Part shown: positions 8,002-61,550 of the stretch, in pieces
Layout of the letters: each line of letters begins with the position of its first letter
How positions within the stretch are numbered: position 1 is the stretch's first letter
NCBI GenBank assembly: GCA_015234045.1
Contig: JADFWU010000013.1
Span: 253 to 64,252 of the forward strand
Direction: 5' to 3'
Length of the DNA stretch: 64,000 nucleotides
DNA from: Magnetococcales bacterium
Lineage (GTDB): Bacteria; Pseudomonadota; Magnetococcia; Magnetococcales; JADFWU01
Notes under the pieces: generated by a model
Told to the model about the DNA's origin: nothing
Database searches by the model: none
Seen by the model: only the letters and a program-made list of their open reading frames with translations
Position numbers and translations under genes: made by a program

Positions 8002-8060
8002 CATGAGGGTCACGGGATAATATATTTATTCCCCCCCCCTAAAGCAGACGATCACAACGA

Positions 8061-8099
8061 TGCCTATGGAAAACCCTACGTACTGGTTTTCTATAGGCA
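8061..8099 (+). terminator. Terminator-like hairpin downstream of the MCP gene
   Basis: TGCCTATGGAAAACC (8061-8075) pairs with GGTTTTCTATAGGCA (8085-8099): 15 bp with 1 mismatch and a 9-nt loop. It is followed by TTGCCTATTGT, a weak U-tract. Confidence 0.45.
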
Positions 8100-8110
8100 T
8101 TGCCTATTGT

Positions 8111-8269
8111 ATAGTCATTTCGATCCAAAATTTGACAATGAATCACTACCTGAGTGGAAACCCTGGTGATGTTTTTGCGCCGCTTTTGATATGCGAAGCA
8201 GATCATCAAAGCAAACATATCACCAGGGCTGGAACAGCTGACTGTTCAAGTTTTAGACAAGACCACTAT
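8111..8269 (+). repeat. MITE-like interspersed element, copy 1 (159 bp)
   Basis: Termini ATAGT...ACTAT with imperfect ~25-30-bp terminal inverted repeats. Central hairpin CCCTGGTGATGTTTTTGC...GCAAACATATCACCAGGG. Near-identical to 12621-12779; related copies at 20264, 42465 and 43775. Confidence 0.85.
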
Positions 8270-8479
8270 ACAGTCATTTTGTACAGCAACAACTGAACTT
8301 GTTGATCCTACGGTAAAATCATATTTTACTCGCCAAAAAAGGTTTTTAATCTGCATAAATATGTTTATAATGCGCTGCGTTAAGCATTCATTACTTGACT
8401 ATTTTGTTTCCGAATAGTGTTATGTGTCATTGTTTACAAATGGCGCTTTTGGCGCTCCATGATCTTTGGAGGATCTTCT

Positions 8480-11400
8480 GTGCTCAAGATGCTTAATGCA
8501 TTTATTTTATTAATAATTTTACTATCTTTCCCAGTCCAATCTGCACAACAGACAGAAGCATCCTCAACTACGGAAACAAGCAACACCCAATCGCACATCC
8601 AACTTTCGGATGACGAGCGAGCCTACCTTGAACGCAAGGGTCCAATCAAAATGTGTACGGACCCAGATTGGATGCCATTTGAACATATTAATGCACAAGG
8701 CAAACATGAAGGAATGGCTGCGGACCTGCTCAAACTGATGCAGCAACGTGGCCCCATACGTATTCAGTTGGTCAAAACCAGGAATTGGCCCGAGAGTATT
8801 CTTTTCGCAAAAAATCGGCACTGTGACATCTTGTCATTGGCTATGGCAACCGAAAAACGAAAAGAGTATATGGATTTCACCACACCCTATTTGGATTTTC
8901 CTTTTGTCATTGCAACGCGCACTGAAGAGTTGTTCATTGATCGTATTGAAACAGTGTTCGACAAACCATTGGCCTTGGTCAAAGACTATGCGTACCTGGA
9001 GATACTTCGAGCACGCCATCCTGATGCCAATCTGATTGAAGTTAAAAATCTGAAACAAGGTCTTGAGTTTGTGCGAGATCATAAGGCATATGGCTATATC
9101 GATGCGTTGGCTAGTATCGCCTACACCATTCAACAAGAAGGAATGGTTGAAATAAAAATTGCCGGCAAGTTTGATGACTCTTGGGATCTGGGCGTAGCAA
9201 CCCGAAGTGATGAACCTATTCTCCACGACATATTTCAAAAGCTGGTTGATACCGTCACATCACCGGAAAAACAAGAGGTATACAGCAATTGGTTTTCAGT
9301 TCGATATGAAAAAGGAACTGATTACAATCTGATTGTAAGAATTGTTATTGTGATGTTACTGATCCTCGTTATCGGTATATTGTGGGCACGTAAAATATCA
9401 TCAATGAACAAAGTGTTGCAAGAAGCCAAAGCCGCTGCTTTGGAAGCATCGTTAGCAAAATCAGCTTTTTTAGCCAATATGAGCCATGAAATTCGCACCC
9501 CAATGAACGCTATCATTGGTATGAGCCATCTCTGTTTGGGGACAGAGATGCAGCCGAAACAAAGAGACTATATCGAAAAGGTTTACCATTCCGCCGAATC
9601 ACTGCTTGGAATCATCAACGATATTTTGGACTTTTCCAAAATTGAAGCAGGACAACTGGAGATGGAATCCATCCCTTTTCATCTTGATGAGGTGTTGAGC
9701 AGTCTTTCCACTGTGATTGCTGCCAAAACACAGGAAAAGGGGGTCGATTTGGTGTTCGATGTCCAACCTGATATTCCCAAAAAACTGATGGGGGATCCAC
9801 TTCGCTTAGGACAGATATTTCTCAATTTGGCAGGCAATGCCCTAAAATTCACAGAGTCCGGGGAAATTATCATTCGTGCTGAAATGTTGGCGAATGATGA
9901 AAAGGGCGTAAAACTCCAAGTGACAGTGCAAGATACCGGCATCGGCATGACGCAAGAGCAATGCAACAAGCTGTTTCAACCTTTCTCTCAAGCAGACAGT
10001 TCCACAACACGGAAGTATGGTGGAACCGGGTTGGGACTCACTATCAGTAAAAAACTGGTGGAAAAAATGGAGGGAATGATCTGGGTTGAAAGTGAGACTG
10101 GCCGAGGAACCGCTTTCATTTTTACCGCTCACTTCGGACATGTAAGCGATTCAGAACTGTCGTCCCACTATCGATTACCAGACGATCTTTACAAACTTAA
10201 AGTGCTTGTTGTGAATGATAAGCCAAGCACTCGCCATGCATTGTCTTCGACTCTCTCCTTTCATTCATTCCGGGTGACATGTGCCAACGGAGTAGAAGAA
10301 GCCGTTGAAATGCTGGAAAGTGCGGCCAAAGCTGATCCATTCAAACTTGTTCTGATGGATTGTCTGATGTTTGAAATGGATGGCGTATCGGTTCTTCAGC
10401 GCATCAAGGATCACCCCTCTCTTTCCAAAGTGCCCATCATCGTTATGGCGACGGTCTCTGGAAAGGAAAAGGCGGTACATCAAAAGGAAAACAGCGCGTT
10501 AAATGGTGTCCTCATTAAACCGGCAACCCCTTCTGATATTTTGGATGTCGTGGTGGATGCTTTGGGACCACAAGAGACTCACCAAAAAAAGGAAAACAGG
10601 CATGAGTCTTGGAAAATCAATGTAGTAGACGCAATTGCTGGTGCTCGTATCCTGGTTGTTGAAGACAATGCCATTAATCAACAATTAGCAGATGAGTTAT
10701 TGAGTCAGGCTGGAGTGAAAGTTGCTATCGCCAGCAATGGCCGGATCGCTGTTGAGAAAGCGACAAACGAATCCTTTGATGCTGTTTTGATGGACCTGCA
10801 AATGCCAGAGATGGATGGTTTTGCCGCCACCAGAATGCTGCGAGCAAACTCAAACCTCAAAAACCTTCCCATTATCGCCATAACAGCCAATGCCATGGCC
10901 AGCGATCGGAAGAAATGTTTGGATGCAGGCATGAACGATTATGTGGCCAAGCCAATTAATCCAGAACAACTGTTTTCATGTCTCGTTAAATGGATTCCAG
11001 AACGAAAGAGTATCGAAACCTCTCCTTTAATAGAAAAACCAAAACAGACGAACACGCCTGTTGATCTTCCTACAGACCTTCCTGGTATTGATGTTGAGAT
11101 TTGTTTACGCAGAGTTGGTGGCAATCCTGAGACAATGCGCAAACTATTGACCCGATTCCATGCGGACCATGCAGATGATGTCAGGAATATTCGTAATTGT
11201 ATACAGGTTGGCACTCTGGATAAAGCCCGTCTTCTCGCCCACACGCTGAAAGGTATTTCTGGGACTATTGGTGCCATGACACTCCATGAGAGTGCTAAGG
11301 CATTTGATCTTTCTCTGAAGGGAGACGCCCCGGATAAGGATGAGCAGAGCGCCATGTTAAACGAGATGGAACAACAGCTGGATTTCGTAATTGACGGACT

Positions 11401-11689
11401 GGGGAACGCGTTTTCAAATCAATCAGATACAACAGAAACAGATAGGACGGATGACATTGATAAAGAGGATATTATTGGCATTATTGATACGCTGGAAATG
11501 CTTATTGAAGACATGGACCCCGATGCCGAAGAGCAGGTTGCACTGTTGCATGCCAAATGTACTAGTCGTTCCGAACAGGCGCTTGTTTCTGGTTTGAAAG
11601 CGTATGTTGAAAATGCAGAATTTGATGAAGCAGCAGAGGTGCTCGACCAATTAAGGACGGCACTGAGGACAATGGAGGGGAACTCATGA
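8480..11689 (+). CDS. Hybrid sensor histidine kinase (periplasmic SBP_bac_3-like domain, TM, HisKA, HATPase_c, 2x REC, HPt)
   Basis: H-box [11 protein letters not shown]; N/G boxes [10 protein letters not shown]...DTGIGM...GGTGLGL; receiver aspartates in [13 protein letters not shown] and [13 protein letters not shown]; C-terminal HPt AHTLKGISG. Start is uncertain: GTG 8480 has GGAGGA 6 nt upstream, ATG 8489 begins the signal-like peptide [12 protein letters not shown], and the track start is 8417. Confidence 0.9.
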
Positions 11690-12624
11690 GTGAAGGCATG
11701 CGAATACTTGTTGTGGATGACGAAAAAATAAACCGTGATTTATTAAATGATCTTCTCAGGGATCAGTACAAAATCATGGTTGCCAAGGATGGTTTACAAG
11801 CTGTGAAGGCGGCTACCCGAGAACAAAGACGGCCCGATCTGATTTTACTGGACATCATGATGCCGGAAATGAATGGCTATGAAGTGTGCCAAAAAATAAA
11901 AAATGAAGATGTCTCCAAAGACATTCCCATTATCTTTGTTACGGCAAAGAATGATGTGGACGATGAAGCGAAAGGATTTGAATTGGGCGCGGTGGACTAT
12001 ATCGCTAAACCGATTTCACCACCCATTGTTCGGGCCAGAGTTAAAACCCATTTAAAATTGAAACGCAAAACTGATTTGTTGGAAAAAATGGTCTCTCTGG
12101 ACGGTTTAACTGAAATCCCGAACCGGCGCGCACTTGATGAATTTTTGGCAAAAGAGTGGCGTCGATCACAAAGATTAAAGTCTCCTCTATCGGTGGTCAT
12201 GATGGATGTGGACAAATTTAAACCATACAATGATAACTACGGTCACGGCGCAGGAGATGACTGCTTGAAAAAAGTGGCTAGAGCTTTAATGACTAGCACT
12301 AAACGACCTTCAGACTTGGTGGCCCGTTATGGCGGGGAAGAGTTTTGTGCTGTGTTGCCCAATACAGATCTTGATGGTGCTATAAGCGTTGCGGAAGCAT
12401 TTAGAGCGACAATTTCCGACTTACAGATTCCTCATGCCTTTTCCGGCATTCTTCCGCATGTGACTATCAGCGTTGGGGTCGCCGTCATGGTGCCCAATGA
12501 ATGGTCAAGCAGCAAGACACTTCAAGAGGCGGCTGATGGTCAACTCTATGAAGCCAAAACGAGTGGCCGAAATCAGGTTCGAGGAAAAACACTTCAAGAT
12601 TGTGGGAATGAGTCGCACACATAG
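11686..12624 (+). CDS. Response regulator-diguanylate cyclase (REC-GGDEF)
   Basis: REC domain with [19 protein letters not shown] domain with an intact GGEEF and an RxxD I-site (RPSD) 5 aa upstream. ATGA overlap with the kinase stop. The stop codon TAG (12622-12624) lies inside the terminus of MITE copy 2. Confidence 0.92.
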
Positions 12625-12779
12625 TCATTTCGATCCAAAATTTGACAATAAATCACTACCTGAGTGGAAACCCTGGTGATGTTTTTGCGCCGCTTTTGAT
12701 ATGCGAAGCAGATCATCAAAGCAAACATATCTCCAGGGCTGGAACAGCTGACTGTTCAAGTTTTAGACAAGACCACTAT
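12621..12779 (+). repeat. MITE-like interspersed element, copy 2 (159 bp)
   Basis: Almost identical to copy 1. Wedged between convergent genes: it overlaps the REC-GGDEF stop and ends 9 nt from the stop of the minus-strand lipoprotein ORF. Confidence 0.85.
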
Positions 12780-12788
12780 GACAAACCA

Positions 12789-13397
12789 TCAAGAATCGCC
12801 TTCATCAACCGGATCACCAAGCACTTCCTTTTGAACAGGATGAAAACGGCTTTGGCGCAATCCTTCCTGCACCTGTTGAAGCAACATCATCTGTTTGCGA
12901 AACAGCTTGGCTTTCACGCGACTCTGTTCACGAGCAACACGAATGCGTTCGCGGAATTCTGTCATGATCTGCCGCCGCATGACACGCAAATCTCCACCCT
13001 GTTTCTGAACAGACGGAATCAGCGCTGAGATCGCTTCATGACGCTGGCGAAGCAGGTCATGATAGTGTACACGTGCTTGATGAAACGCCTGCCGGACCAC
13101 ATCGGTCTGCGCCTCAAAGTGGGCAACCTTACCTCTCCAATACAACTCAGGCATGGCCTGTCTTTGGATTTTATCCCAAACACCATCCTCTTTGAATATC
13201 ACCGGATCTAACGTACTCTCATCAACAGGCGATGTGCATGCGGAAAGCAGAAGTAACAACAAAAGCGGAAAAAAGACGAAAAGATGACGTGCTTCGCTAA
13301 TAAAAACAACAGAAGCACGCTGTTTTGACAGGCCGACCAGAGCAGTCGGCACACAGGAGAAATGAAATTCAGGCCGTCGCACTGACACGCGACGCAT
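12789..13397 (-). CDS. Putative lipoprotein with helical, Arg/Gln-rich C-terminal part
   Basis: Hydrophobic stretch plus lipobox-like FFPLLLLLLLSAC. Start taken at the MRRVSV ATG (13397); the longer track ORF would overlap the upstream regulator by >100 nt. No family recognised. Confidence 0.45.
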   Translation of the reverse strand: MRRVSVRRPEFHFSCVPTALVGLSKQRASVVFISEARHLFVFFPLLLLLLLSACTSPVDESTLDPVIFKEDGVWDKIQRQAMPELYWRGKVAHFEAQTDVVRQAFHQARVHYHDLLRQRHEAISALIPSVQKQGGDLRVMRRQIMTEFRERIRVAREQSRVKAKLFRKQMMLLQQVQEGLRQSRFHPVQKEVLGDPVDEGDS

Positions 13398-14736
13398 ATT
13401 CGTTGAGCTTATTACGCAAAGTACGGATGGATATTCCCAACATCTCAGCCGCACGGGTACGATTACCATCCACTTCATTGAGGGTATGACGAATCAATAT
13501 CTCCTCCATCTCCCGAACAGTGGTTCCCAACGGCATTTGAATCTGATCCACACCTGTGCCACCCGCATCTATCAAAGTAGACGGTGCAGCACCCGCTGGT
13601 GCCGGATCAATCATCAAATCTTCTGGGGTGATCGCCTTACTCTCTGCCATAAGCAGCGCCCGTTGAACAACATTCTCCAACTCACGGACATTACCAGGCC
13701 AAGGTGCGGCTTCCAAAGCGGCCAAGGCCTGATTGGAAAAGGGAATATCGTTACGACCAAACTCTTTGGTAAAACGCCTGCGAAAATGCTCGGCCAGTAG
13801 AATGACATCTTTTGTACGCACACGCAGCGGTGGCAATTGGACGGGAAACACATTCAAACGGTAGAACAGATCTTCCCTGAAATGCCCTTCCTCAGCATAG
13901 GATTTCAACTCTCGGTTGGTAGAAGCGATCACCCGGACATCCACCTGAACGGGTTTACGACCACCCACAGGATCTACCTCACCTTCCTGAAGCACGCGCA
14001 GAAGCTTTGCTTGAAGCTTCAGACTCATTTCAGAGATTTCATCCAGAAAGATCGTGCCGCCGTTGGCTTGTAGAAATTTACCTTTTCGATCACCGGTCGC
14101 ACCGGTAAACGCCCCTTTAATGTGACCGAACAATTCTGATTCTAAAAGATTTTCTGGCAACGCAGCACAGTTTAGCGCAACAAAGGACTTTTCAGCACGA
14201 TCAGAGACTTGGTGGATATAGCGCGCAATCAACTCTTTACCGGTTCCACTCTCACCCTGAACAAGCACCGTTGCACGAGATTGCGCCACCCGACGAACCT
14301 GGGTAAGCAACTTCAACATCTTCGGATCACCGGTGATCAAATGGCGACCGCGCCCCAATTCAGGATCAATGGTGGCAGAGACATAGTTGTTCACCAAGCC
14401 TTTGACAATTTCCGAGTCAATGGGCAACAGGATATAATCACTGGCACCTTGGGCAATGGCCTCACTGGCTTCATGAACACTGCCACGCTCCGCAGCGACC
14501 AATACCGGCAAGCCTCGGTACAGAAAGGCTAACTCCCGCACAAGATCAAACGGCTCCGGCATGGTATCCACCGAAATGATCACCAATCCGGGCAATCCGT
14601 CCGACAACCTCTTTTTGGCAGCATCAACAGTGTCGATAATGACGACATCCTTCCCGGTGGTCTTGAATTGACCGGCCAGGGTGGAAAAAGCCTTATTGGC
14701 ACTGCCTATGAGTAATATTTCGCTCTGCTGAGTCAT
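13369..14736 (-). CDS. Sigma-54-dependent response regulator (NtrC family: REC - AAA+ - Fis-type HTH)
   Basis: 455 aa. Walker [15 protein letters not shown] loop (GHIKGAFTGA), ESELFGH, and C-terminal HTH AAEMLGISIRTLRNKL. Confidence 0.92.
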   Translation of the reverse strand: MTQQSEILLIGSANKAFSTLAGQFKTTGKDVVIIDTVDAAKKRLSDGLPGLVIISVDTMPEPFDLVRELAFLYRGLPVLVAAERGSVHEASEAIAQGASDYILLPIDSEIVKGLVNNYVSATIDPELGRGRHLITGDPKMLKLLTQVRRVAQSRATVLVQGESGTGKELIARYIHQVSDRAEKSFVALNCAALPENLLESELFGHIKGAFTGATGDRKGKFLQANGGTIFLDEISEMSLKLQAKLLRVLQEGEVDPVGGRKPVQVDVRVIASTNRELKSYAEEGHFREDLFYRLNVFPVQLPPLRVRTKDVILLAEHFRRRFTKEFGRNDIPFSNQALAALEAAPWPGNVRELENVVQRALLMAESKAITPEDLMIDPAPAGAAPSTLIDAGGTGVDQIQMPLGTTVREMEEILIRHTLNEVDGNRTRAAEMLGISIRTLRNKLNEYASRVSATA

Positions 14737-14825
14737 AGTCTCTATTTATATTCCAACAATTTGAGAGCCGACACGCTAAGGGCCAACAATCCGGGGAGAG
14801 CCAATAATCCGGGCATATGCCCACT

Positions 14826-17711
14826 CTACTGGATCATATCCTGAACCAACTTCATATGTTCTGCATTTTCAGCGGACGCATTCGCCCAAGGAGAATTCGG
14901 CGTTATTTCAGAGGCTGCGCGAAAATGATCTTCAGCACCAACCAAATCTCCCTTACGTTGCAGGATATCGCCTATTCGGATATTGGCCAATGTTTGAATT
15001 TCTTTATCCGTAGCTTTTTCAGCTATCTCCTGAAAAATCGGCAGGGCTTTATCATCCCCTTTCCACTGATGCATCAGGACAGCATAGTCGTAGTAATCCT
15101 TCCCCTCTTCCACATCACGATTATAGAGCAACATCTCCATACTACTCACCGCTTGAGGAAAACGTCCGCGCTTGGCTTCCGCCTGTGCCAACAATCGTAG
15201 GCGAATCGCATTTTGGGCGGGACTCATTTTTTCAGTTGGCAACTCATCCAGCAGATTGATAACGTTGATCCAATCCTCTTTAACCGTCAGACGACGCGCC
15301 TCATCCAAACGGATTCGCGCCTCAGCGGCAGAAGTTTTCAGATTTGTTTCCAACGCCAAGCGCCCACCAATACGACGATTTTCTTCCAAACTGTTTGCCA
15401 GTTTCAACATCGCTTCCGCAGGGCGCTCTTCCAACCCTTCCAGAGCCGGAATACTCGCAGAATACATACCCAATCGCATCAACGCTTCAGCCAGCGTCAC
15501 CCGTGCATCGCCATACCCTTCCCAAGAACGCCAATCTTCACCGAACCGTTCAGCAATGGAAATCGCTTTTTCCGGGCTATCCACAGCCAAGGCATCTTTC
15601 ATACCCGCAACCATGTATTTATGCTTGAACTGGTTGGTGCGTTCCACAGTGGCCGGACGAGAGTTGATCAACAACAACTCATTCAACCGATCCATGGCCT
15701 TATGGTAGAAGCCATCGTCACCGAGAAGCTGTGCAGCTGTCAGATTGGCCTCAATCAACGCTTCGGAAAGGGACTCATCCTTGATAATTTCATCAAGAAC
15801 CTTCAGACGCTCTTCAGTGGGTTCATCCGTCTGCAACTGCACACGAAACACCCGCGCCCAAATAGCGGCATCAGACTCCGGGAACTCCAAAAAAAGCCGT
15901 TCCAACAGATTCTTTGCACGATCAGTCTCGCCTAGATAACGCTCTGACTCCGCAGCACGCAAAATCGCCCAAGGTGCCAATTCATCGTGGGTATTGTAGT
16001 AGTCCAGGAAGCGGATATAGTGGCGCAATGCGTTTTGATAATCGCCCTGTTTATAGTAGATATCCGCCAAATCCAACTGCCGTTTCGGACTATTGGAAAG
16101 CAGTGCCAAATGGTTTTCCGGCATATTGTTAAGAATTTTGACCGCTTCTTCGAGATCGCACGGATGTTTCCAGCGGCCCCAGGTGATGGTCGGTGCCGAA
16201 CTTTGCGGACCGCAAGCACGGCGGATCTCCATTTCAGCCCAGAGATAACTCGCCTCTGCGCTGGGCAGACCATCCCGCTCATCCAGTTCACTCACCTCTT
16301 TCAAGTGAGTGACCACCTTTTTAAACTGCTGCTCCGGGTCCAACACATCCGCCAAGCCCAGTGCTGTTTTTGCCCGCTCCAATGCGACTTGCGGATTGTC
16401 CTTGGGCAGATTGGGATCAGTGAGAATAGCAGAGGCATCTTCATACCGATGCGCTTCATTCAACAGTTGTAGCTGAAACAGACGGAAATCGGTGTAACGG
16501 TAGTTATTGGGATAGCGTGCCAATCCCGCCGTCAACTCATCCAGCATCCAGCCGGTATTTACGTCCATCTGTCGGGCCAGATCAATCTTATACAACTCAA
16601 CCACTTCCCGATTGATCGTATAGGGAAACACCTCAAGCAGACTATCCAGGATGGCGCGTGCTTTTCTATAGCGCCTATCCTGCTCGGCTTTTTTGGCATT
16701 GGCCCAGAAAAACCCTTCATCCACTTCCTGACCACTCAGGCTGATGGGCTCCTCATTCATGATAAAAACCGGTGTCAGGCGATTGAGCGGCAACGGATGA
16801 CCGGCTTGAAGACTGCGTTTGCGATATTCGATAATATTTTCCGCCTCTTCCTGGCGGCCAATACTGTTCTTACCCCGCAATTCGACAATAAAGGTGCCCG
16901 CTTCAGGACTGCGATAGAAGTACACCTCCTGCACTTGAGAATGGATACCCAACTCCATTTCGACCCGTCCATCGGGAAAGGCATAAGCCAAAAGGTGGGC
17001 AGCCATACCCTTGGGCGTGATCTTCTCTGCAAGGCCAGCCGGTTTAACCGGACGCCAGCCCGGATCTAACGAAGCACCCGGCCAGGTCAGACGAACCACA
17101 CGGGCACCGAAATCCACCACAGCACCCATTCCAGGCTGTGGTGCATCCTTGCCTTTTTTATCCATTCGCTGGTCCAGACCATCCACCCAACCGTTACCGG
17201 TATAGGAAATTACAACCAGCGTGGCATCTCGTCCAGCCATGGCACGACCTTCCAACAACATGGTCGGCCCTTGTGCAGAAGGCTCAGGATACCGCTCAAT
17301 TTCCAAACGATATAGACGGCTCTGATTTTTGGTTTTCAAATGGGCCGGACGGTCATTTTTAACAAGATGACCTCGGAAATTAAGATAAGGCTCTTTCAGG
17401 GCGATGGTGAGGTGCAATCCCATCTGTGCGCCTGGGATCTCCTCCATCTTGAAACCACGAATAAATCGCGTACGATCAGGATTAAAATCTTCAAAGGGCA
17501 GCGCAAGCAGACCAGGAATCGTAACGCGCAACACAGTCGGACGAATCAGGGTCAGGCGCGGAGTCTCAAACCCTGGTGGCACGTGGAAGGAGAGCACCTC
17601 ACGGCGGCCCTGCTCTTCGGAGCCATACTCCAGGGAGGTGAAAAACGCCAAAGCATTTGAACTGCTGGCAAGGAAGAGAAGTACCGCCAACAGAATGTGT
17701 CGCAGGAACAT
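14826..17711 (-). CDS. Secreted/periplasmic TPR-repeat protein (~960 aa)
   Basis: Signal peptide MFLRHILLAVLLFLASSSNALA (ATG 17711; the track start 17753 is upstream). A beta-rich N-terminal third is followed by a long TPR-like helical region. Lies between two sigma-54 activator genes. Confidence 0.75.
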   Translation of the reverse strand: MFLRHILLAVLLFLASSSNALAFFTSLEYGSEEQGRREVLSFHVPPGFETPRLTLIRPTVLRVTIPGLLALPFEDFNPDRTRFIRGFKMEEIPGAQMGLHLTIALKEPYLNFRGHLVKNDRPAHLKTKNQSRLYRLEIERYPEPSAQGPTMLLEGRAMAGRDATLVVISYTGNGWVDGLDQRMDKKGKDAPQPGMGAVVDFGARVVRLTWPGASLDPGWRPVKPAGLAEKITPKGMAAHLLAYAFPDGRVEMELGIHSQVQEVYFYRSPEAGTFIVELRGKNSIGRQEEAENIIEYRKRSLQAGHPLPLNRLTPVFIMNEEPISLSGQEVDEGFFWANAKKAEQDRRYRKARAILDSLLEVFPYTINREVVELYKIDLARQMDVNTGWMLDELTAGLARYPNNYRYTDFRLFQLQLLNEAHRYEDASAILTDPNLPKDNPQVALERAKTALGLADVLDPEQQFKKVVTHLKEVSELDERDGLPSAEASYLWAEMEIRRACGPQSSAPTITWGRWKHPCDLEEAVKILNNMPENHLALLSNSPKRQLDLADIYYKQGDYQNALRHYIRFLDYYNTHDELAPWAILRAAESERYLGETDRAKNLLERLFLEFPESDAAIWARVFRVQLQTDEPTEERLKVLDEIIKDESLSEALIEANLTAAQLLGDDGFYHKAMDRLNELLLINSRPATVERTNQFKHKYMVAGMKDALAVDSPEKAISIAERFGEDWRSWEGYGDARVTLAEALMRLGMYSASIPALEGLEERPAEAMLKLANSLEENRRIGGRLALETNLKTSAAEARIRLDEARRLTVKEDWINVINLLDELPTEKMSPAQNAIRLRLLAQAEAKRGRFPQAVSSMEMLLYNRDVEEGKDYYDYAVLMHQWKGDDKALPIFQEIAEKATDKEIQTLANIRIGDILQRKGDLVGAEDHFRAASEITPNSPWANASAENAEHMKLVQDMIQ

Positions 17712-17805
17712 CTCACCCCTCCGTGTGTCTCTGTCTGCGCCAAAGTATTTCACAGCCGTTTAAGAATAGCACAGAATGATCTTCAATTCTCCAACAGCCG
17801 TGCTA

Positions 17806-17821
17806 TGCTTTTCGCTGTCCA
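17806..17821 (-). promoter_or_regulatory. Candidate sigma-54 (-24/-12) promoter for the TPR gene
   Basis: The minus strand reads TGGACAGCGAAAAGCA. GG and GC are separated by exactly 10 nt, as in consensus TGGCAC-N5-TTGCA. It lies 55-95 nt upstream of the candidate starts. The -12 TT is replaced by AA. Confidence 0.3.
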
Positions 17822-17892
17822 TTGAGGTAGAACCGCACTGAGTATACGCCCCACCTCAACAGAAAATATGTGTGACAATCCTGGAACAAGGT

Positions 17893-18891
17893 TTACCGTT
17901 TTGAACGGAACTGATCCAGCCCTTTTTTCTTGATCTTTTCAACCAGAGTGGTCCGATTAAGTTTCAACAACTGTGCCGCTTTATTCTTGTTCCAGTTAGT
18001 CCGATCAAGCGCGTTGAGAATCAGACGATTCTCAAACTCTTCCACATCCTTGTTAAAATCTGAGGAATCGACATTCTGATTCTTAACGGCAAATGCGGAA
18101 GCCGGAATCAGGTGATCACCGGGCGCGGTATGATTCTTATTATCCAGAATCTTGGGCGGCAGATCCTCAACCACCACTTCCTCATCGGCGAGGATGGTCA
18201 AACGTTCGGTGAGATTTTCAAGCTCACGCACGTTACCAGGCCATTTATAGCGGCTGAAAATTTTCATAATTTCCACACCAACTTGAATGGGATCGCGCTC
18301 CTGGGTTTTAGCATATTTTGCAATAAAATGATCAACCAACAGAGACAGATCACGCCCTCTGTCCCGCAATGGCGGTGCAATCAGAGGCACGACGTTGAGG
18401 CGGTAGAACAAGTCTTCACGAAACCGTCCTTCTTCCACCTCGGTTTCAAGATTTTTATGGGTTGCCGCGATGACACGCACGTCCACCTTGAATGATTTTA
18501 CCGAACCAACCGGTTCAATCACCCGTTCTTGCAGTACACGCAACATCTTCACTTGCAGTTTTGGACTCATATCACCAATCTCGTCCAGAAACAGCGTACC
18601 ACCGTTGGCCAGTTCAAACCGTCCGGGCCGCGTACTGGCCGCACCGGTAAAAGCACCGCGCACATGTCCGAACAGTTCCGACTCCAGAAGGTCTTCAGGA
18701 ATCGCGCCACAGTTCACAGGAATGAGCGGCTTATCCTTCCGTGGTGAAGCCTGGTGTATTGCACGGGCGATCAGCTCTTTACCTGTTCCACTTTCGCCAT
18801 GTACCAGCACAGTGGAAGGGGTAGCGGCTACCCGCTTGATCATCTTGAAGAGTTTCTGCATACAGGCAGATTCGCCAATAATACCGTACAC
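17893..18891 (-). CDS. Sigma-54 enhancer-binding protein lacking an N-terminal regulatory domain (PspF-like: AAA+ plus HTH only)
   Basis: 332 aa. Walker [15 protein letters not shown] ([10 protein letters not shown]), C-terminal [24 protein letters not shown] start preceded by GAGGGAG. An in-frame TGA 57 nt upstream of the GTG start, with no start codon in between, rules out a longer N-terminus. Confidence 0.88.
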
Positions 18892-19178
18892 GCGTTCTTC
18901 TCCCTCAGCTACAGCGGGGTAATATCCTAGTTTATAAAGAGGTTTTTTTCAATTTTGTCGAGGGAATATCAGAGTTTGATTCCGTCAAAAAACCAACACA
19001 AGATTACGGCAATTCCCTATGGATATGCAATGCGTTCATATCCAATTTTTCTGGAAAGCGAGCTTGGTTACTGAATCTCAAGGAAAAAAAATTTATCGTC
19101 GCTTCCCAGAGATCCTTTGGACACAATAATTGAATTGTTCAAACCGCCCCTTTTGCTGCACCGAGGAGTTTACATCAT

Positions 19179-20216
19179 ATGGGACACCATATCCCCAAAA
19201 AATCACAACAACCAAAAAAAAACGCGCTCCCGAGAGGTTCTCAGTCAAAAGGAAAACAACCAACAGGAAAAACGCAAGGCCGGACCAAACGGATTGATAA
19301 TAAAAGAGTTACAACCAGACGGGTTGGTGATTTCATTCGTGCAACAGCCAAACGATTACGGCAAAACAAGGTGTGTTTGGAAAACGGCATGCAAACCCCA
19401 CAATGGGAAGCGGAATATCTTATCGCGCATATTCTGGACCTGCCTGTGGATAAACTTGACTATCACCGTCACAAGCCTGTGGACGCGCCTTCCGCCGCTC
19501 GGATTGAGACCCTCCTTGATTTGCGGATCAACGAACACATACCCGCCGCTTACCTCACCAAAGAAGCATATTTCGCAGGCCACCGTTTCTTCGTGGATGA
19601 GCGTGTATTGATCCCACGGTCGCGCATCGAAAACATCCTTGATGATGAGGATGGATTTCCCGGCCTGATGAACGGCAAACCCATCGAACATATTCTCGAT
19701 CTGGCAACGGGAAGCGGTTGTCTGGCCATTTCACTGGCCTTGGCGTTTCCCTCTGCCCGCGTGGTAGGTTCAGACATCTCTGAGGGTGCGTTGGCGGTAG
19801 CCAAAATCAATCGAAAAAAACACCACCTTGAAAAACGATTAACTCTGGTACACTCGAACCTGTTCCACTCTTTGGCGACAGAGTGTTACGATCTCATTGT
19901 GACCAATCCGCCCTATGTGCCCAATGCAGTAGTGGATAACTTGCCGCCGGAATATCGCAAGGAACCAGATCTGGCCCTGCGGGCTGGCGATGATGGACTC
20001 TCTCTGGTGACACCTCTGCTCAAGGCTGCGCCCGATCATCTCACACCCGGTGGATTACTGGTCTGCGAAGTGGGCGATGAACAGGAAGAGACCATGAAAG
20101 AACGCTGGCCCGACTTTCCTGGTTACTGGCTTCCATTTCATTTTGGTGCCAGCGGCGTATTTGCCATCCATCGGGAAACGCTACAAAACTGGGTAAATGA
20201 TCACGAATTAGGATAA
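19179..20216 (+). CDS. prmB: 50S ribosomal protein L3 N5-glutamine methyltransferase
   Basis: IPAAYLTKEAYFAGHRFFVDERVLIPRS, SAM motif LDLATGSGCLAI, catalytic TNPPYV and the C-terminal LVCEVG pattern are collinear with PrmB. It carries a ~30-aa Lys/Arg-rich N-terminal extension if the ATG at 19179 is used. Confidence 0.88.
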   Translation: MGHHIPKKSQQPKKNALPRGSQSKGKQPTGKTQGRTKRIDNKRVTTRRVGDFIRATAKRLRQNKVCLENGMQTPQWEAEYLIAHILDLPVDKLDYHRHKPVDAPSAARIETLLDLRINEHIPAAYLTKEAYFAGHRFFVDERVLIPRSRIENILDDEDGFPGLMNGKPIEHILDLATGSGCLAISLALAFPSARVVGSDISEGALAVAKINRKKHHLEKRLTLVHSNLFHSLATECYDLIVTNPPYVPNAVVDNLPPEYRKEPDLALRAGDDGLSLVTPLLKAAPDHLTPGGLLVCEVGDEQEETMKERWPDFPGYWLPFHFGASGVFAIHRETLQNWVNDHELG

Positions 20217-20263
20217 TATGTAGCAATGAGATTTTCAGATAGACCAAGTAGATAAAAACGATA

Positions 20264-20452
20264 ACAGTGTCATTTCGATCCGAAATTTGACAATGAATCA
20301 CAACCTGAGTGGAAGCCCTGGTGATGTTTTTGCGCCGCTTTTGATATGCGAAGCAGATCATCAGAGCAAAAATATCACCAGCAGATCATCAGAGCAAAAA
20401 TATCACCAGGACTGGAACGACTGACTGTTCAAATTTTAGACGAAATCACTAT
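20264..20452 (+). repeat. MITE-like interspersed element, copy 3 (189 bp, with internal 28-bp tandem duplication)
   Basis: Same architecture as copies 1 and 2. GCAGATCATCAGAGCAAAAATATCACCA occurs twice in tandem (20353-20380 and 20381-20408), duplicating the 3' arm of the central hairpin. Confidence 0.85.
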
Positions 20453-20562
20453 AATAAAAAGTACGCAGTTACCAATTGAACACACAGAACAATGACGACT
20501 ACTAAAGCGTTTTCAACTGCGTAACGCCTAATAAAAAACTTTGCCGAACAGACGAGCATGCC

Positions 20563-22008
20563 ATGAAAAAAGAACACCACCCGCTTCAAGTCGCACTGGA
20601 CTATATCTCTGGCCATAAAAACATCAAACCGGACCAGGCTCGCAAAGCGGTTCGCAATGCGATGTTCAAAGAGGCCCTTGGTCCAGGGCCTATGGATGCC
20701 TCTCTGGAACGCAGTTTAATCAATCTGCTGGATAAAGGCGTGCGCGGCCTGGTCGCCTCCGACAAAAACCGTTCTGAAATCCTGGACCAACTGATTGGTG
20801 GACTCAGAAAAGGACGCGGACAGAAAGAGATCGCCTGGTTGGTTGAAGAACTGCGCCTGGTTGCCGGATGGTTGAGACGCCAATGCGATGAACAGAGTGA
20901 TCTGCACCGCCGCCTGGAGCACACTCAAGAAGCATTGAGAACCGCACAGTCCACAGCCCTGGAAGTTCCACCGCCTGTACAGGAACCCAGCCCTGATACC
21001 GTTGAACTGCTCTCCAACACCTTGTCGGGCATTGCGGCGCTATTGAACGCCATGTCCGTACTCGGCGCCTCCGATCCCTGGATGGTGGAAGAGAGTGAAA
21101 AACTGCTCGCCCAGATTCAGGAATCACTCTTTGACGACCTTGGCGCAAATCTGAACACCTTTGGTCAACGGGCTGAACGTGTTGGAAAAACATTGGCAGA
21201 AGAGCGTAAAAAAGAGCGGGAAGCCGTTGCTCTTCTGGTCAATGATCTCATGGAACGCCTACTCTCCCTGCGCCACTCTACCGGTGGTTTTTCCGACCGC
21301 ATCAGCGGCTCCATTGATCGAATCAGAGGCACCAACAAACTCACTGACCTTGAACAGGTGCGTACCACTCTGATTCGAGAAGCTGAAGGGATTCAGGAAG
21401 AGACCCAACTGGTGCGTAGCGAGCTTTCACGCGCACGTCAGGAGCTACATGATGCCCGCTCCAAGATGGATCAACTCTCCGAAGAACTCAACCAAGCCCG
21501 CAGTGAGAGCCTTACCGATGGATTGACCGGTGTCGCCAACCGCCGTGCGCTGGATAACTACCTTGAACGGGAAGTCGCCCGCAGCATCCGCAATCAGGAG
21601 CCACTGTCACTGGTTTTGATCGACCTGGACCACTTCAAAAAAGTCAACGACAACTACGGACATCCTGTGGGCGACAAGGTGTTGCAGGTGGTCTCTGACC
21701 GGGTCAAACGCAGTCTACGCAAATCCGATTTTCTAGGCCGTTATGGCGGTGAAGAGTTTGTTCTGGTTCTACCGACAACCAACCTTGAAGATGCGGGCAG
21801 TTTTGCCGAAAAAATCCGTCTTGAAATCGCTGCATTGCGCTTTAAGACCGGTGCCCAAACTCTTCAGGTATCCGCCAGCTTTGGCGTTGGTTGCCTCACC
21901 AAGGAGATCAACTCTGTTGTCGCGCTGACCGAATACGCCGATGAAGCGCTCTACGCAGCTAAAGAGGGCGGACGCAACCGCGTGGTTCTTGCTTCCAAAA
22001 CACACTAA
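20563..22008 (+). CDS. Diguanylate cyclase (coiled-coil N-terminal region plus GGDEF)
   Basis: 481 aa. GGDEF domain with GGEEF and RxxD (RKSD). N-terminal ~300 aa are helical or coiled-coil with no recognised sensor domain. Confidence 0.88.
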   Translation: MKKEHHPLQVALDYISGHKNIKPDQARKAVRNAMFKEALGPGPMDASLERSLINLLDKGVRGLVASDKNRSEILDQLIGGLRKGRGQKEIAWLVEELRLVAGWLRRQCDEQSDLHRRLEHTQEALRTAQSTALEVPPPVQEPSPDTVELLSNTLSGIAALLNAMSVLGASDPWMVEESEKLLAQIQESLFDDLGANLNTFGQRAERVGKTLAEERKKEREAVALLVNDLMERLLSLRHSTGGFSDRISGSIDRIRGTNKLTDLEQVRTTLIREAEGIQEETQLVRSELSRARQELHDARSKMDQLSEELNQARSESLTDGLTGVANRRALDNYLEREVARSIRNQEPLSLVLIDLDHFKKVNDNYGHPVGDKVLQVVSDRVKRSLRKSDFLGRYGGEEFVLVLPTTNLEDAGSFAEKIRLEIAALRFKTGAQTLQVSASFGVGCLTKEINSVVALTEYADEALYAAKEGGRNRVVLASKTH

Positions 22009-22119
22009 ATTGACACACAAGAGATAACTGCCTTTAGACACACAATAAGAAAACAACATAGTTTCAATATGTTATACATGCAAGCTACACAATTGCCGGT
22101 TGAAACAGACATCAAAGCA

Positions 22120-22159
22120 TGTACCCGTCATTCCCGCTTCTTAGAGAGTGACGGGTACA
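22120..22159. other. Perfect 11-bp inverted repeat (hairpin)
   Basis: TGTACCCGTCA (22120-22130) and TGACGGGTACA (22149-22159) with an 18-nt loop. No U-tract on either strand, so it is not a canonical terminator. Confidence 0.5.
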
Positions 22160-22190
22160 AAATTCATTCAACTGCGTAACGCCTAGGGCG

Positions 22191-22320
22191 TGTTGACATT
22201 CGCCAGATTTCGGTTCCTGGCAAGGCAAATCCAACGAAAAAGCGGAGCGTACTGGTAGTACGTGAGCATTTTGAGGCGGATTTAACGCCGCCAGAGGCCG
22301 AAAGATGGTGAATGTCAACA
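22191..22320 (+). other. ~130-nt long imperfect hairpin element (unclassified structured RNA or palindromic repeat)
   Basis: The outer stem GTTGACATTCGCC (22192-22204) / GGTGAATGTCAAC (22307-22319) is 13 bp and includes one G:T pair. That pair is a wobble only if the plus strand is transcribed. Nested inner helices are TTTCGG/CCGAAA, CCT..GGC/GCC..AGG, AAATCC/GGATTT and the apical CGTACT-GGT-AGTACG. Confidence 0.4.
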
Positions 22321-22534
22321 GGGCCTAATACAAATGAGACCATTCGGGCCTTGTCTGAAAGAGACGGATGGGATAGTGTGATCTGGTTAGGCAAGTGGGC
22401 GCTTAATCATTTGAATGGCCATCGTTCAAATAGATATTTATCATACATAAGAAATGGTGCTATCCTAAATTACTGGACCTCAATCCACGGCGTGTCATTG
22501 TGACATGCCGGCAGCTAGGCTATTGAAAGTCTGA

Positions 22535-23413
22535 ATGTTTTCAATCGGACCCATACCACCAAATTTGGTGAATGATTTCAATTACTGTCGTCAGGTAGTC
22601 CGCAGTCATGCGGAAAACTTTCCGGTGGGCTCTCGGCTGGCACCGCGCAGTATCCGTCCCTTTTTACATGCTGTTTATGCTTTCTCTCGCCGTGCCGATG
22701 ATTTCGCAGATGCACCCGGTCGGCAGAATTTCGAAAAACTCATGCTGTTGGATGACTGGGGCAGACGGCTGGAAAATGCCCGCCTGGGCCATACGGATCA
22801 CCCGATTTTCCGCGCTCTGGCGTTTACTTTCAGCAACACCCCGCTCTCCATCGAACACCTTCGCAATCTACTGATTGCCTTCCGCATGGATGTGACCAAT
22901 AAGCGCTATGACACCTTGGAAGAGTTGGCGGAATATTGCCAATACTCGGCCAACCCCATCGGGCGTATTGTGCTCTCGCTTGCCGAAGAAGAGACCCCAG
23001 AAAATCTCCACTGGGCTGATGCCATATGCACCGCCCTTCAGCTTACCAACCATCTTCAGGATCTCGGTGAAGATGTCTGGAAAGGACGGCCTCTCTATCT
23101 GCCACGGGAAGAGATGGAACGTTTTGGTGTCAGTGAGGAGATGATCCTTCAGCGCCGATACACTCCCACTATCGGCTCTCTGGTTATCAGTCTTGTTGAA
23201 CAGACCCGTGAACTGTTTCTGGTAGGTGAACCGCTGCTCAAACATGTTCAATGGCCACTCAACCTTGAATTGGCCATCACCTGGGAAGCGGGCATGATCA
23301 TCCTGGAGCGAATAGAAATGCTGGGCGGAAACACATTCCGAACCCGGCCACGTCTCACAGGCAGGGACAAAGCACACTGCTTCTGGAGAGCAATGGGACA
23401 GGTCAATCGATGA
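22535..23413 (+). CDS. hpnC: Squalene synthase HpnC (squalene/phytoene synthase family)
   Basis: 292 aa. Asp-rich motifs FSRRADDFAD and LQDLGEDV. Stop overlaps the start of hpnD (ATGA). Confidence 0.8.
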   Translation: MFSIGPIPPNLVNDFNYCRQVVRSHAENFPVGSRLAPRSIRPFLHAVYAFSRRADDFADAPGRQNFEKLMLLDDWGRRLENARLGHTDHPIFRALAFTFSNTPLSIEHLRNLLIAFRMDVTNKRYDTLEELAEYCQYSANPIGRIVLSLAEEETPENLHWADAICTALQLTNHLQDLGEDVWKGRPLYLPREEMERFGVSEEMILQRRYTPTIGSLVISLVEQTRELFLVGEPLLKHVQWPLNLELAITWEAGMIILERIEMLGGNTFRTRPRLTGRDKAHCFWRAMGQVNR

Positions 23414-24303
23414 CATCGGCTGCCTACTGTCGCAAAAAGACACGTCAGTCTCGCTCATCGTTCTACTATCCCCTTCTGCTGGCCGCGCCAATCCGGCGCG
23501 ATGCCCTGTTTGCCCTCTACGCCTTTTGCCGGGAAGTTGATGATCTGGTGGACGGCCCCATGGAATCCATACAGGCACAACAACAGCTTAATGGTTGGCG
23601 TAAAGAGATTCAGGACGCTTTTAACGGACAACCCAACCATCCAGTAGGCCATGAGATCAATCGGGCGCAACAGCGCTTTAATCTGCCGCAATCACTGTTC
23701 AATGACATTCTTGACGGCATGGAGATGGATCTCAACAACCGGCGCTATCTCACTCTGAACGACCTTCAACACTATTGTCAGCGTGTTTCTGTGGCGGTTG
23801 GCCTGCTGGCCATGCGGATTTTTCTCGGACATGGTGATGGTCACCCCATTCCAGATCTGATTCTCAAGCAAGGAGAGCGCTTTGCTCATCATCTGGGCAT
23901 GGCGTTTCAATATACCAATATCCTGCGCGATGTGCCTGAAGATCTGAACATGGGACGGATCTATCTTCCAGGTGAAATGCTGTTTCAGGCAGGTGTTTCT
24001 GAAGAGCAACTGATCACTGGATCAGGCGGTGCGGGTGTGGCGATTGTAGCCAGCCAGATTGCCGCCTTGGCCCAGGATCATTATCAAAAAGCCGCTGAAC
24101 TCATCACACCGGAATTACGACCTCGGCTGGTGCCTGCGGCCATGATGGCCGAGATTTATCAGACCTATTTGCACCGCATCCAACAGCACAATTTTGATGT
24201 ATTTACCGACTCTATTCGATTTAGCAGAATGGAAAAGCTGGTGCGGATAATTCGGGTTTGGATTCGGGAAAAAAGGCTGATTTGGATGGCACGCAGGACG
24301 TGA
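23410..24303 (+). CDS. hpnD: Presqualene diphosphate synthase HpnD (squalene/phytoene synthase family)
   Basis: 297 aa. FCREVDDLVD and NILRDVPEDL motifs. Paired with hpnC as in hopanoid/squalene loci. Confidence 0.8.
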   Translation: MTSAAYCRKKTRQSRSSFYYPLLLAAPIRRDALFALYAFCREVDDLVDGPMESIQAQQQLNGWRKEIQDAFNGQPNHPVGHEINRAQQRFNLPQSLFNDILDGMEMDLNNRRYLTLNDLQHYCQRVSVAVGLLAMRIFLGHGDGHPIPDLILKQGERFAHHLGMAFQYTNILRDVPEDLNMGRIYLPGEMLFQAGVSEEQLITGSGGAGVAIVASQIAALAQDHYQKAAELITPELRPRLVPAAMMAEIYQTYLHRIQQHNFDVFTDSIRFSRMEKLVRIIRVWIREKRLIWMARRT

Positions 24304-27311: not shown

Positions 27312-30300
27312 TCAACCGGGCATTTCAAACGGCGGCTCCTCTTTATTCCAAAACAGAGGCAAATCTTTGGGATCACCACAGCCATAGCTTTTGCCTTCTA
27401 TGAAGGGCTTGTAGCGGTCCAGCATTTTCTGGGGTTTGGGGACATCTTTGAAGGTGTCCCGTTTTTCCTGAGGTAGCGTGCAGAGTGCGGTGACCAATTG
27501 ACGAAGAGGCTCTCTCAAATCAGAGCGGCAGCCTGCCAGGAGATAACCATCATTTATAATATCCAAACGCTCTTCGTGATTGGATACTCTATTAACTATC
27601 GACTGAAAATCAGTGGCCTCAGTTTGACCTGAAGAGTTGGATATCTTAATTAACCAATCAATAAACTGCACAGCAACATCTTTGGTTTTTCTTCTTAGCC
27701 ATGTTTCAGACAACTCAACTATTTCATCAAATTGTTTTTCAAGAGCTAATGTCAATATAGTTTGATTAACAAACTCAGAAACCCCTTTCCCTTGCTGCAT
27801 GATTAAAAGAGACTTCTCAAAATGCTCTCTTGCCAAATCTGTTTCATTGAGATGTTGATATAATGAGCCTAAATTTCTATGTATATAAGCCCTACCTGCT
27901 TCATCCTCAGAAACAGTTAACCCCTTCTTAAAAACAGACTTGGCTATGCTGAAATAGCCATTACGATAATAAGATAATAATCCGAGACCATTCCATGCAT
28001 GCGCAAACTTTGGATCCAGATCTATCGCTTTTCGATACGATGACTCCGAGTCTTCATAACGATCCATATAATTTTGATACAAATTGCCCAACTCTTGCCA
28101 TGGATGCGCTAATTTTGGATCCAGTTCTATCGCTTTTCGGTATGATGACTCCGAGTCTTCATAACGCTCCATATGATTTTGATACAAATTACCCAATCCA
28201 TGCCATGGAGGCGCATACTTTGGATCCAGTTCTATCGCTTTTCGGTACGATGACTCCGATTCTTCATAACGCTCCATATGATATTGATACAAATTGCCCA
28301 ATTCATTCCATGAAATCGCAACCTTTGGCTCCAGTTCTATCGCTTTTCGATACGATGACTCCGAGTCTTCATAACGCCCCATGTTATATTGATACAAATT
28401 GCCTAATTCATACCATGAACCTGCAAACTTTGAATCCAGATCTATCGCTTTTCGATACGATGACTCTGAGTCTTCATAACGCCCCATGTTATATTGATAC
28501 AAATTGCCCAATCCATACCATGGATCTGCAAACTTTGAATCCCGTTCTATTGCTTTATTATAATACAACTCAGCGTTTTTATAATTCTCCATACAATTAT
28601 GATATAAATCTCCCAAAGCGGCACATACCCGAGCATCTTCTGGATCAATATCAGCAGCTTTTTTATAACATCTCTCAGCTTCAGGACATTCACCCTGTTC
28701 ACCAAAAGAATCCCCAACTCGTCCCCAAATACTTAAAACATCTTCTTCCACCGATTCAACACCTTGATAAATCAACTCTCTCAGTTCAGTATTCTTTCCA
28801 GCTTCCTGCCAAAGCTCATACCAATATTGCCCCCACTGCTCCCAAGCTGGGAACGGATGATTGCCTTTTTCGAAACCTTTTAACAGAGCAGGAACTATTG
28901 AATTATCTTCATTGAGAACAATGTGTTCTACCCACTCTTTTTGATGCTTAAAATAGTGGGAAATCAAATTAGGAATAAATTCACCATCCAGCATAGAAAG
29001 CTTTTGTCGTTCCTCATTAAACACCCCAACCAACTCATTGATTTGAGCAGCACTCAACGTGTCAAAATCGTCCAACAATTGCTTCTTATTTTCCCAAGAC
29101 ATGGACGTAAAGCCGGATAACCAGTCCAAAAATTCATCATGGCTGACCTTAACGCCCTCCGGCATTGGTTTAGAGCCAATGAGTTCTTCTCTGACAGAAT
29201 CAATTGTGCGCCCTTCTTCTGGCATCAGGTCCAAAGGCCAATACCAGTGAGGCAAACGCAACAGAGGAATAAAATCCTCGCTCCGATGTTTTTTTGGCAA
29301 TGAATCATCGAGAAGAAAGTGTTCTCTTTGCTGATTATCTGATTTTTTACTTTTCTGACTATCTGGTTTTCTATCCGCAGAGATACCGGTAGTGCGGGAG
29401 ATTTTTTCTTGGATTTCCCGCTCCTGTTTTTCCAGAAGCTGCCCATCAATGTCTTCGGCTATATTGATTACAGATTGTACATAGGGGTGCTCACGATTTT
29501 TCAAAGCCAGAGGTAGATCTGAAACAGCGAGATGTGGCGTATAGGGCAGCGTATATATTACAGGAACGACCTCATCCTGTTCACCTTCAGAAACATGCAG
29601 GCGTTCATCTTTCAACAACTGTTTACCCTGATTCAATGCCTGCATGGCAAAAGGATCATCATGGATATGGGCTGGAATCGGTGAGAACACCACTTTCAGG
29701 TCTTTTGCATAACACCCCAAAGGCACGCGCTCTTTTCGAAGTGCTTTAAGGGTTAAACTAAGACCTGTTAAATTCTGCTCATTAAGTCCAGATATCAAAA
29801 CGATTTCATCAGCTAAATAGCCCAGCGTCATATTCAACAGTTCTGGAAATCCTGTACGGCAATCAATCAGAACATAGTCGAATTTTTTCTTACAATCAGG
29901 GAGGACAAACTGGGAAAAATCTTCTCTCAATTTGAATGAAAAGCCCCTTAACGCCTTGTCAAAAGGATTTTTCGACGCGCCGTTCGAACTGGGAATAGTT
30001 TGAATTTCACCATCAATGATAGTTGGCGACTGAAAACGTACCTTACCTGCGCCCATGGCCATAATTCGACCATTCCGCCCCCAAACCATCCCCTTTGGAG
30101 GAAACATTTCCCGAAACAGTCTACCGGCTGGATAGTAGCCAAAATGATCGGGATTCTCTTTATGTTTTTCGTAGAAAATTGTCAGCAGATCACTAAATCC
30201 TCGACCTTCAAGAGAAGGATCACTCCAGGGTGAATTTTTCAGCATGGGAGAATAGGTCAGCCCAGGAGCCGCCAGATCCATATCCACCAAGCCAATCACT

Positions 30301-35829: not shown

Positions 35830-36221
35830 GATGCTAATAGTGTCAGTTTTACTCAATCTTTTCCAGGTATTCTAGGGCTGTACCAAACAAAAAGTGCTTT
35901 CATGACACATTTGTTCCGAAGCCCGCAAAACCTAATTCCAGCATAGCACAAACCCGGTTGGCTGATTCCCTGTTTCACGCTACATATTGCCGCTGACCAA
36001 TCACCTGCGCTATTATCATGCACTGGCGCGTGGGGATGCGCTCTCCCGATCAACAAAAAGAACCTTGAATCTTCCCGACGGGAACACCTGAAAAGGGTGG
36101 GCCAAGCGCTTTTTTTTGCCCTCTTTTTCTCGTTCAGAACCTTTCCCCGCACCCTTTGTTAGTCTGTTCAATTGAAAACAGATCGTTATCCTCGCCTGAC
36201 CATCTAAATAAAAAAACAGTC

Positions 36222-43712: not shown

Positions 43713-43774
43713 GATGATCTATTCCTGGCTTATCATGAGTGGAGAAGAGCTCTCACAGCATATTACTGATTTTT

Positions 43775-57954: not shown

Positions 57955-61550
<3,596 letters not shown>

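Follow-up and report, generated by a model that had tools for sequence, protein, structure and literature searches.

A probable new MITE family beside gene ends in a deep-branching Magnetococcales genome

Prokaryotic MITEs are mostly intergenic units of 50–800 bp that carry no transposase and have terminal inverted repeats of at least 10–15 bp as well as target duplications of 2–10 bp (PMC11602168). Correia (NEMIS) elements of Neisseria, which are about 100–200 bp long and have long inverted termini, are often co-transcribed with their neighbour genes; both they and ERIC (IRU) elements affect mRNA via RNase E and RNase III, and in Yersinia ERIC changes transcript stability via RNase E (PMC10969869). 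Two direct MITE copies may also bracket cargo, as in integron mobilization units and in TIME-COMPs, a documented example of MITE-bounded composites that move genes (PMC13367494). Here, we compare these systems with a short repeated element noticed in a sequence-only reading of a 64-kb stretch of DNA, the window of this study (64,000 nt in full), from an uncultured magnetotactic bacterium, represented by a deep-branching Magnetococcales MAG.

Alignment and a repeat finder resolve the element into five copies of 159–190 bp, all on the + strand, a count drawn from this one 64-kb window (Table 1). Five copies in the same orientation had been proposed by the sequence-only reading, whose coordinates prove right to within 1–2 nt. 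A profile HMM built from the five copies scores each of them at E = 4e-57 to 5e-41 (64 kb) and recovers no other copy, whether complete or partial, across the 64 kb. Extra nhmmer matches at 43646–43764 and 13047–13091 failed on closer look and are noise, and no second, degenerate copy was found downstream of the GGDEF gene. Pairwise identity within the element amounts to 83.5–98.7%, while the 60-nt flanks are 18–33% identical, which is the random level, so that the boundaries are sharp. Diagnostic positions separate copies 1 and 2, with 2 differences in 159 bp, from copies 3–5 and thereby define two subfamilies; all pairs other than copies 1 and 2 are 84–91% identical. The tandem duplication of copy 3 comprises 20352–20379 and 20380–20407, and copy 5 contains three units (43888–43914) of a 9-mer that occurs twice in the other copies. 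The GC content of the element is 41%. Stops interrupt each of the six reading frames in at least three copies, and the one frame left uninterrupted in copies 1 and 2 is broken in copies 3–5, in agreement with the earlier statement that the element has no coding capacity.

Directly at the 3′ end of copy 1 lies a solo terminus of the 5′ type. The terminus pattern AYAGTNATTTYG has six matches in the window compared to 0.14 expected (for a 26-nt left-terminus pattern, 0.00 chance occurrences are expected), and no similarity of the solo terminus was found past ~12 nt. Either it is what remains of a sixth copy, or it was a target that resembles a terminus.

Table 1. Positions of the five element copies and associated features within the 64-kb window
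Feature	Position	Strand	Description
Copy 1	8111–8269	+	Subfamily A; profile HMM E 3.7e-57
Copy 2	12621–12779	+	Subfamily A; 98.7% identical to copy 1
Copy 3	20266–20452	+	Subfamily B; PrmB–GGDEF spacer; 28-bp tandem duplication
Copy 4	42465–42624	+	Subfamily B; best inverted termini; SLC13/HD-GYP1 convergent spacer
Copy 5	43775–43941	+	Subfamily B; between HD-GYP2 and HD-GYP1; CCATGG/CCATGG pair
Left terminal inverted repeat, copy 1	8110–8137	+	Pairs with 8243–8270
Right terminal inverted repeat, copy 1	8243–8270	+	Pairs with 8110–8137
Central hairpin, copy 1	8161–8228	+	Arms 8161–8178 and 8211–8228; 7-bp apical stem inside
Solo 5′-type terminus ACAGTCATTTTG	8270–8281	+	12 nt; directly abuts copy 1 3′ end
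DNA between copies 1 and 2	8272–12619	+	Hybrid histidine kinase and PleD-like GGDEF operon, 4.35 kb

In its size, inverted termini, lack of a transposase gene, several dispersed intergenic copies, palindromic fold and possible short AT-rich duplication, the element resembles prokaryotic MITEs (PMC11602168, PMC10969869); it differs from them in that it has no sequence relative in the collections searched and that the copies seen are all on one strand. No transposase is found among the ~45 annotated genes of the window, including any TnpA, TnpB, RAYT or IS630-type enzyme, nor did the window yield an autonomous partner whose ends match those of the element. The gene ends used here match GenBank protein lengths (proteins MBF0621421–MBF0621445). 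The sequence-only reading had assigned the repeat to non-autonomous transposable elements. This assignment is upheld by the small size, the ~28-bp inverted termini, the lack of an ORF, the sharp-edged copies in unrelated flanks, the subfamilies, and the element-free PrmB–GGDEF spacers of two relatives described below. We consider it probable that the copies represent a new MITE family that would be moved in trans by a transposase encoded elsewhere, has been recently active and is kept where it is harmless, with its fold as a by-product.

The family had not been recognised from its sequence, and likewise nothing similar appeared in any collection searched. Two independent gapped patterns of 24–25 bases, each fitting all five copies, gave no match in GTDB species genomes (one per species) or JGI metagenomes, and the gapped patterns revealed no copy in IMG/VR either; 14 IMG/VR matches of a 17-base pattern were dismissed as chance (nhmmer E > 0.2). 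A blastn search against plasmids, phages and 5,426 complete E. coli genomes returned no match, a concatenated six-frame pseudo-protein query against 5.8 billion proteins returned nothing, and no copy is present in 88 kb of sequence from six loci of related Magnetococcales. No Rfam model matched at its gathering score; with E-value thresholds, only miRNA-precursor models appeared, at 19–27 bits compared to the 48–91 needed, which is noise. The source lineage is itself isolated: the best non-self match of PrmB, in other Magnetococcales, reaches 57%, and at 90% identity all protein clusters that were checked have a single member.

The ends of the element read (T/C)A(T/C)AGT...ACTAT(A/G) and are of the YAGTSATTTCGATCC...GGATCGAAATSACTR type. 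Consistent with the ATAGT...ACTAT termini reported earlier, the terminal inverted repeats are imperfect, extend over ~28 bp and match at 22–24 of 32 positions in every copy, best in copy 4. They form an outer helix (helix 1) of 24 pairs, in which 90.8% of cells are paired. Within the element, variation is highest at the tips (32% of columns), as expected of ends that no longer need to work. Correia elements are flanked by TA and have termini that begin TATAGYGG, and their transposase is not known. In reverse complement, the right end of our element, TATAGTGG, resembles this start; beyond the first 8–9 bases the termini probably differ. The two families further differ in that our element is without a sigma-70 promoter motif and resides in a distant host lineage.

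Both a TA and an AT target duplication fit three of the five copies, and neither can be separated from the inverted repeat because both dinucleotides are palindromic, as the sequence-only reading had cautioned. When the core and one AT are removed, the PleD gene retains the same last codon followed by TGA (ACA TGA) and HD-GYP1 again ends in GTA TAA, and the joint chance of both restorations under the AT model is ~0.035. Under the TA model, removal of the element lengthens the PleD and HD-GYP1 proteins by 17 and 43 aa. Stop-codon restoration thus favours AT over TA. On the other side, the invariant A is followed by T in copies 1, 2 and 4, and copies 3 and 5 as well as the solo terminus have C there; this base behaves as an inherited part of the element, which fits TA|YAGT and speaks against AT. 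That the solo terminus and copy 1 have a single TA in common also favours TA, whereas copy 2, the youngest, is flanked by CA...TG rather than TA...TA. A TA target, if confirmed, would be shared with MITEs derived from IS630/Tc1-mariner elements, such as RUP of S. pneumoniae, and we take the TA|CAGT tips of copies 3 and 5 and the solo terminus to resemble Tc1/IS630-type ends. The flanks of copy 2, the stop restoration in favour of AT and the lack of an IS630-type transposase in the window set the element apart from that group.

The window contains a second, unrelated palindromic element of 140 bp (22186–22325), whose 38-nt arms are 79% complementary and which has TA...TA flanks. It sits inside the sequence TTCAACTGCGTAACGCC-TA-ATA, which is found uninterrupted at 20512–20533 and thus provides a filled/empty pair with TA duplication; such small palindromic insertions have therefore occurred in this genome. 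The 140-bp element is single-copy in the window and lies in a 526-bp GGDEF–SQS spacer that measures 9–19 nt in relatives. Nearby, a 22-nt repeat with 95% identity between its copies (22150–22171 and 61667–61688) forms the right arm of a 14-bp hairpin (22120–22159) in one case and lies just past gyrB in the other, and may belong to a small REP-like family.

All five copies and the solo terminus have one orientation, which is not predicted by random insertion (two-sided chance 0.06 for the five copies, where the events are few and partly dependent). The uniform strand would be explained by single-stranded transposition through an HUH (Y1) transposase, comparable to IS200/IS605-derived palindrome-associated elements or to REP/RAYT systems. 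Hairpins are indeed present, no unambiguous target duplication was found, and the GC skew of the window is negative throughout with no sign change, so that all copies lie on one replichore. The ends of IS200/IS605 elements, however, are not inverted repeats of each other, and those of our element are mutually inverted over ~28 bp. Moreover, the 5′ flanks (TATTG, CACAC, GATAA, AAATT and TTTTT) have no tetra- or pentanucleotide in common that could serve as a target, a 160-bp element with 41% GC is unlike the 20–40-nt GC-rich REPs, and the window encodes no TnpA, TnpB or RAYT. Transposition of this type is accordingly very improbable, and we retain the MITE family as the preferred reading.

The insertion sites are closely tied to gene ends. 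Copy 1 starts 109 nt past the stop of an MCP/CZB gene and lies ~400 nt before the hybrid histidine-kinase gene. The PleD-like GGDEF gene has its stop codon in bases 2–4 of copy 2 (TAG, 12622–12624), and 7–9 nt separate the right end of this copy from the stop of the small, convergently oriented ORF at 12789. Copy 4 occupies the spacer in which the SLC13 permease and HD-GYP1 genes converge, and HD-GYP1 owes its final Val codon and its TAA stop (42621–42623, minus strand) to the last bases of the copy; this stop is at the ancestral position, since the C-terminus aligns to the last residues of the paralogue. Copy 5 is antisense to both flanking tandem paralogues, HD-GYP2 and HD-GYP1. The earlier observation that four copies follow a + strand gene on its 3′ side was reproduced, with distances of 109 nt, an overlap with the stop codon, 49 nt and 23 nt. 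The spacers that contain the five copies are all convergent or co-directional, the six divergent, promoter-only spacers are free of the element, and every copy is at most ~110 nt from a gene end. This location recalls ERIC elements, which are likewise imperfect palindromes of similar size at gene 3′ ends that fold in mRNA. Unlike them, our element shows no sequence similarity (the 5,426 E. coli genomes searched by blastn carry ERIC), and its folding in mRNA is predicted.

Two further features of these spacers and genes may be recorded. Between the MCP stop and copy 1, a run of nine C (8031–8039) is followed by a hairpin with a 14-bp stem (8062–8098; GCCTATGGAAAACC...GGTTTTCTATAGGC). The tandem HD-GYP paralogues (42621–45249, minus strand) share 58% protein identity, and an N-terminal DUF3391 is present only in the upstream HD-GYP2.

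The whole element folds back on itself (MFE −43 to −52 kcal/mol with z −2.7 to −4.9, z reaching −6.3 at most), and in the consensus structure 93.5% of cells pair, compared to 33–46% when the partners are slid. The central hairpin of 18 bp that the sequence-only reading had described is found at equivalent positions in every copy. Its compensatory change from CCCTGG/CCAGGG to CCATGG/CCATGG in copy 5 is likewise present (pair 56/157) and is one of two compensatory pairs, the other being at the very tips of copy 2. Furthermore, four copies out of five are bordered by a GGDEF or HD-GYP gene, and each of the window's four genes of this kind has an adjacent copy (hypergeometric P 0.001–0.006, for a gene category picked post hoc and with copies 4 and 5, which flank tandem paralogues, possibly not independent). 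Together with the strong fold in every copy and the short distances to gene ends, these observations could point to a domesticated module, in which the structure is selected as an RNA 3′-UTR stabiliser or processing site, a transcription barrier or a protein-binding palindrome, perhaps linked to c-di-GMP.

The variation between copies lends no support to selection on the structure. Double-changed pairs number 2 compared to 1.7 ± 1.0 in column shuffles, of which 285 of 500 equal or exceed the observed value, and the covariation score of 0.079 compares to 0.077 in shuffles, with low power given only five sequences. About 12 substitutions break pairs, stems are conserved no better than loops (23% of paired and 33% of unpaired columns are variable, p = 0.19), and copies 3 and 5 carry indels in or beside the 3′ arm of the hairpin. 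The scanned copies contain no intrinsic terminator (GC-rich stem and T run), the 6-bp stem at 8236–8251 being followed by AAGTTTTAG rather than by a terminator T run; no sigma-70 promoter motif occurs within the element, and no Rfam family accounts for it. A sigma-54 promoter was also considered and rejected, as TGG-N8-TTGC in the hairpin arm has three mismatches to TGGCAC-N5-TTGC, and sigma-54-like matches with at most two mismatches occur 76 times in the window compared to 75 by chance. Relative to the c-di-GMP genes, position and orientation of the copies are inconsistent (3′ sense, 5′ sense, 3′ antisense and 5′ antisense). A domesticated module is therefore unlikely. The earlier suggestion that the hairpin is under selection is left without support by this comparison, in which five sequences give the test little power. 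A young palindromic repeat explains the fold without selection.

Window positions 12789–24303 and 48907–50743 were compared with loci of related Magnetococcales (L095–L100). The gene order small ORF – sigma-54 activator (EBP) – TPR – sigma-54 activator (EBP) – PrmB – (GGDEF) – SQS – SQS is kept in six relatives. Three relative MAGs lack the GGDEF gene and have PrmB beside SQS, while M. marinus MC-1 and the MAG GCA_015231175 keep PrmB–GGDEF–SQS–SQS with full-length GGDEF orthologues (E 6e-94). In the latter two, the PrmB–GGDEF spacer is element-free and measures −4 nt (MC-1) and 67 nt (GCA_015231175); here it measures 346 nt, to which copy 3 contributes 190. These spacers are the nearest approach to an empty site, in relatives that are too distant for one at the nucleotide level (protein identity of PrmB only ~57% in the closest). 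We rejected the idea that copy 3 and the GGDEF gene arrived together as a lineage-specific insertion: MC-1 and GCA_015231175 carry a GGDEF gene at this place, and therefore the element alone is extra. Separately, a block of genes for proteins of 253 aa and 148 aa and a PPIase adjoins the conserved block in one relative (L097) via a cold-shock-domain gene, and lies 36 kb away from it here.

Copies 1 and 2 are arranged as direct repeats 4.5 kb apart, and the kinase–PleD operon bracketed by them is compositionally foreign. Its GC content is 44.1% (GC3 43%) with a skew of +0.07, compared to 50–51% GC and a skew of −0.08 to −0.12 in the flanks. The best matches of the kinase (at most 53%) come from SAR324, Desulfobacterales and Psychromonas, outside the order, whereas those of PrmB are all from Magnetococcales. 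In addition, synteny with four relatives stops at most ~10 nt from the right end of copy 2. A similar bracket surrounds HD-GYP1, between copies 4 and 5. It is thus conceivable that the copies have spread mainly as ends of larger units, serving as composite arms or recombination substrates, and the two candidate units would be copy 1 – kinase/PleD – copy 2 and copy 4 – HD-GYP1 – copy 5. The arrangement of direct copies around cargo is that of TIME-COMPs and integron mobilization units (PMC13367494), from which the locus differs in that the element termini are unrelated to Tn3, the cargo consists of signalling rather than resistance genes, and the composite is a candidate only.

Several observations make such an origin quite unlikely. 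The AT/TA flank around the composite is uninformative, as it is common to all copies. If only copy 2 is removed, the right-hand flank provides a stop for PleD again, which suggests that copy 2 inserted in place when PleD was already beside that flank. Copies 4 and 5 are 85% identical compared to ~65–71% DNA identity of the flanked genes, and a 64-nt segment distinguishes their junctions. Copy 3 has inserted singly between two genes whose pairing is conserved, and low-GC islands without the element also occur in the window, for example at 27.3–32.3 kb. We regard it as similarly doubtful that copy pairs act as arms of composite units importing or shuffling signalling genes, with copies retained beside c-di-GMP genes for their effects on expression. 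An integron attC site was tried as a further candidate and rejected, given large unrelated genes, a spacing of 1.3–22 kb and no core sites.

The remainder of the window offers some observations in their own right. Cumulative GC skew declines from one end of the window to the other without a turning point, and no origin signal was found in it. The dnaA gene, 20 kb from recF–gyrB, lies beside restriction-modification fragments (36156–38937 and 57871–61550), namely a 166-aa ORF with a BsuBI/PstI N-terminal domain only and an Eco57I-like methylase fragment. Tandem repeats of 105 bp (35 aa) at 27857–28681 and 33082–34038 lie within TPR-repeat genes (27312–30392 and 32416–35856), and the first of these genes and its neighbours have a low GC content of 41–45%. 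Finally, a segment of 1.7 kb (47175–48906) is without a long ORF and contains a Cys-rich 108-aa ORF (47561–47887) with no Pfam match.

As members of a new MITE family, the copies would each be a 159-bp relic, devoid of genes, of a cut-and-paste DNA transposon, with ~28-bp imperfect inverted ends that would be bound and cut by a transposase from elsewhere in the genome. The whole unit, including the 18-bp hairpin, would fold back because its halves are inverted copies of each other, and the fold would be an architectural by-product instead of a selected structure. Activity would have been spread over time, with copies 3–5 (84–91% identical, with indels and decayed tips) being old and copies 1 and 2 young; the near-identity of the latter could reflect gene conversion instead of recent transposition. 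Copies would survive only in low-harm spots, that is, in spacers just beyond gene ends, and two of them would have landed on the last codons of a gene, where their own TAG or TAA tip restores the stop. Any effect on the host would be secondary: a large 3′-UTR hairpin might alter mRNA decay, by analogy with ERIC and Correia elements.

In conclusion, the repeat appears to be an ordinary kind of selfish element from a previously unseen family, with a function that is putative at most. It would add a new repeat family to a poorly sampled magnetotactic order, for which no MITE is described in the literature searched, and would explain why five spacers are puzzlingly long and two stop codons unusual. 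Should many copies be present in the rest of the genome, the element could be a marker for strain typing and for assembly checks of such MAGs, and the family would make it possible to test whether pairs of MITEs move signalling operons.
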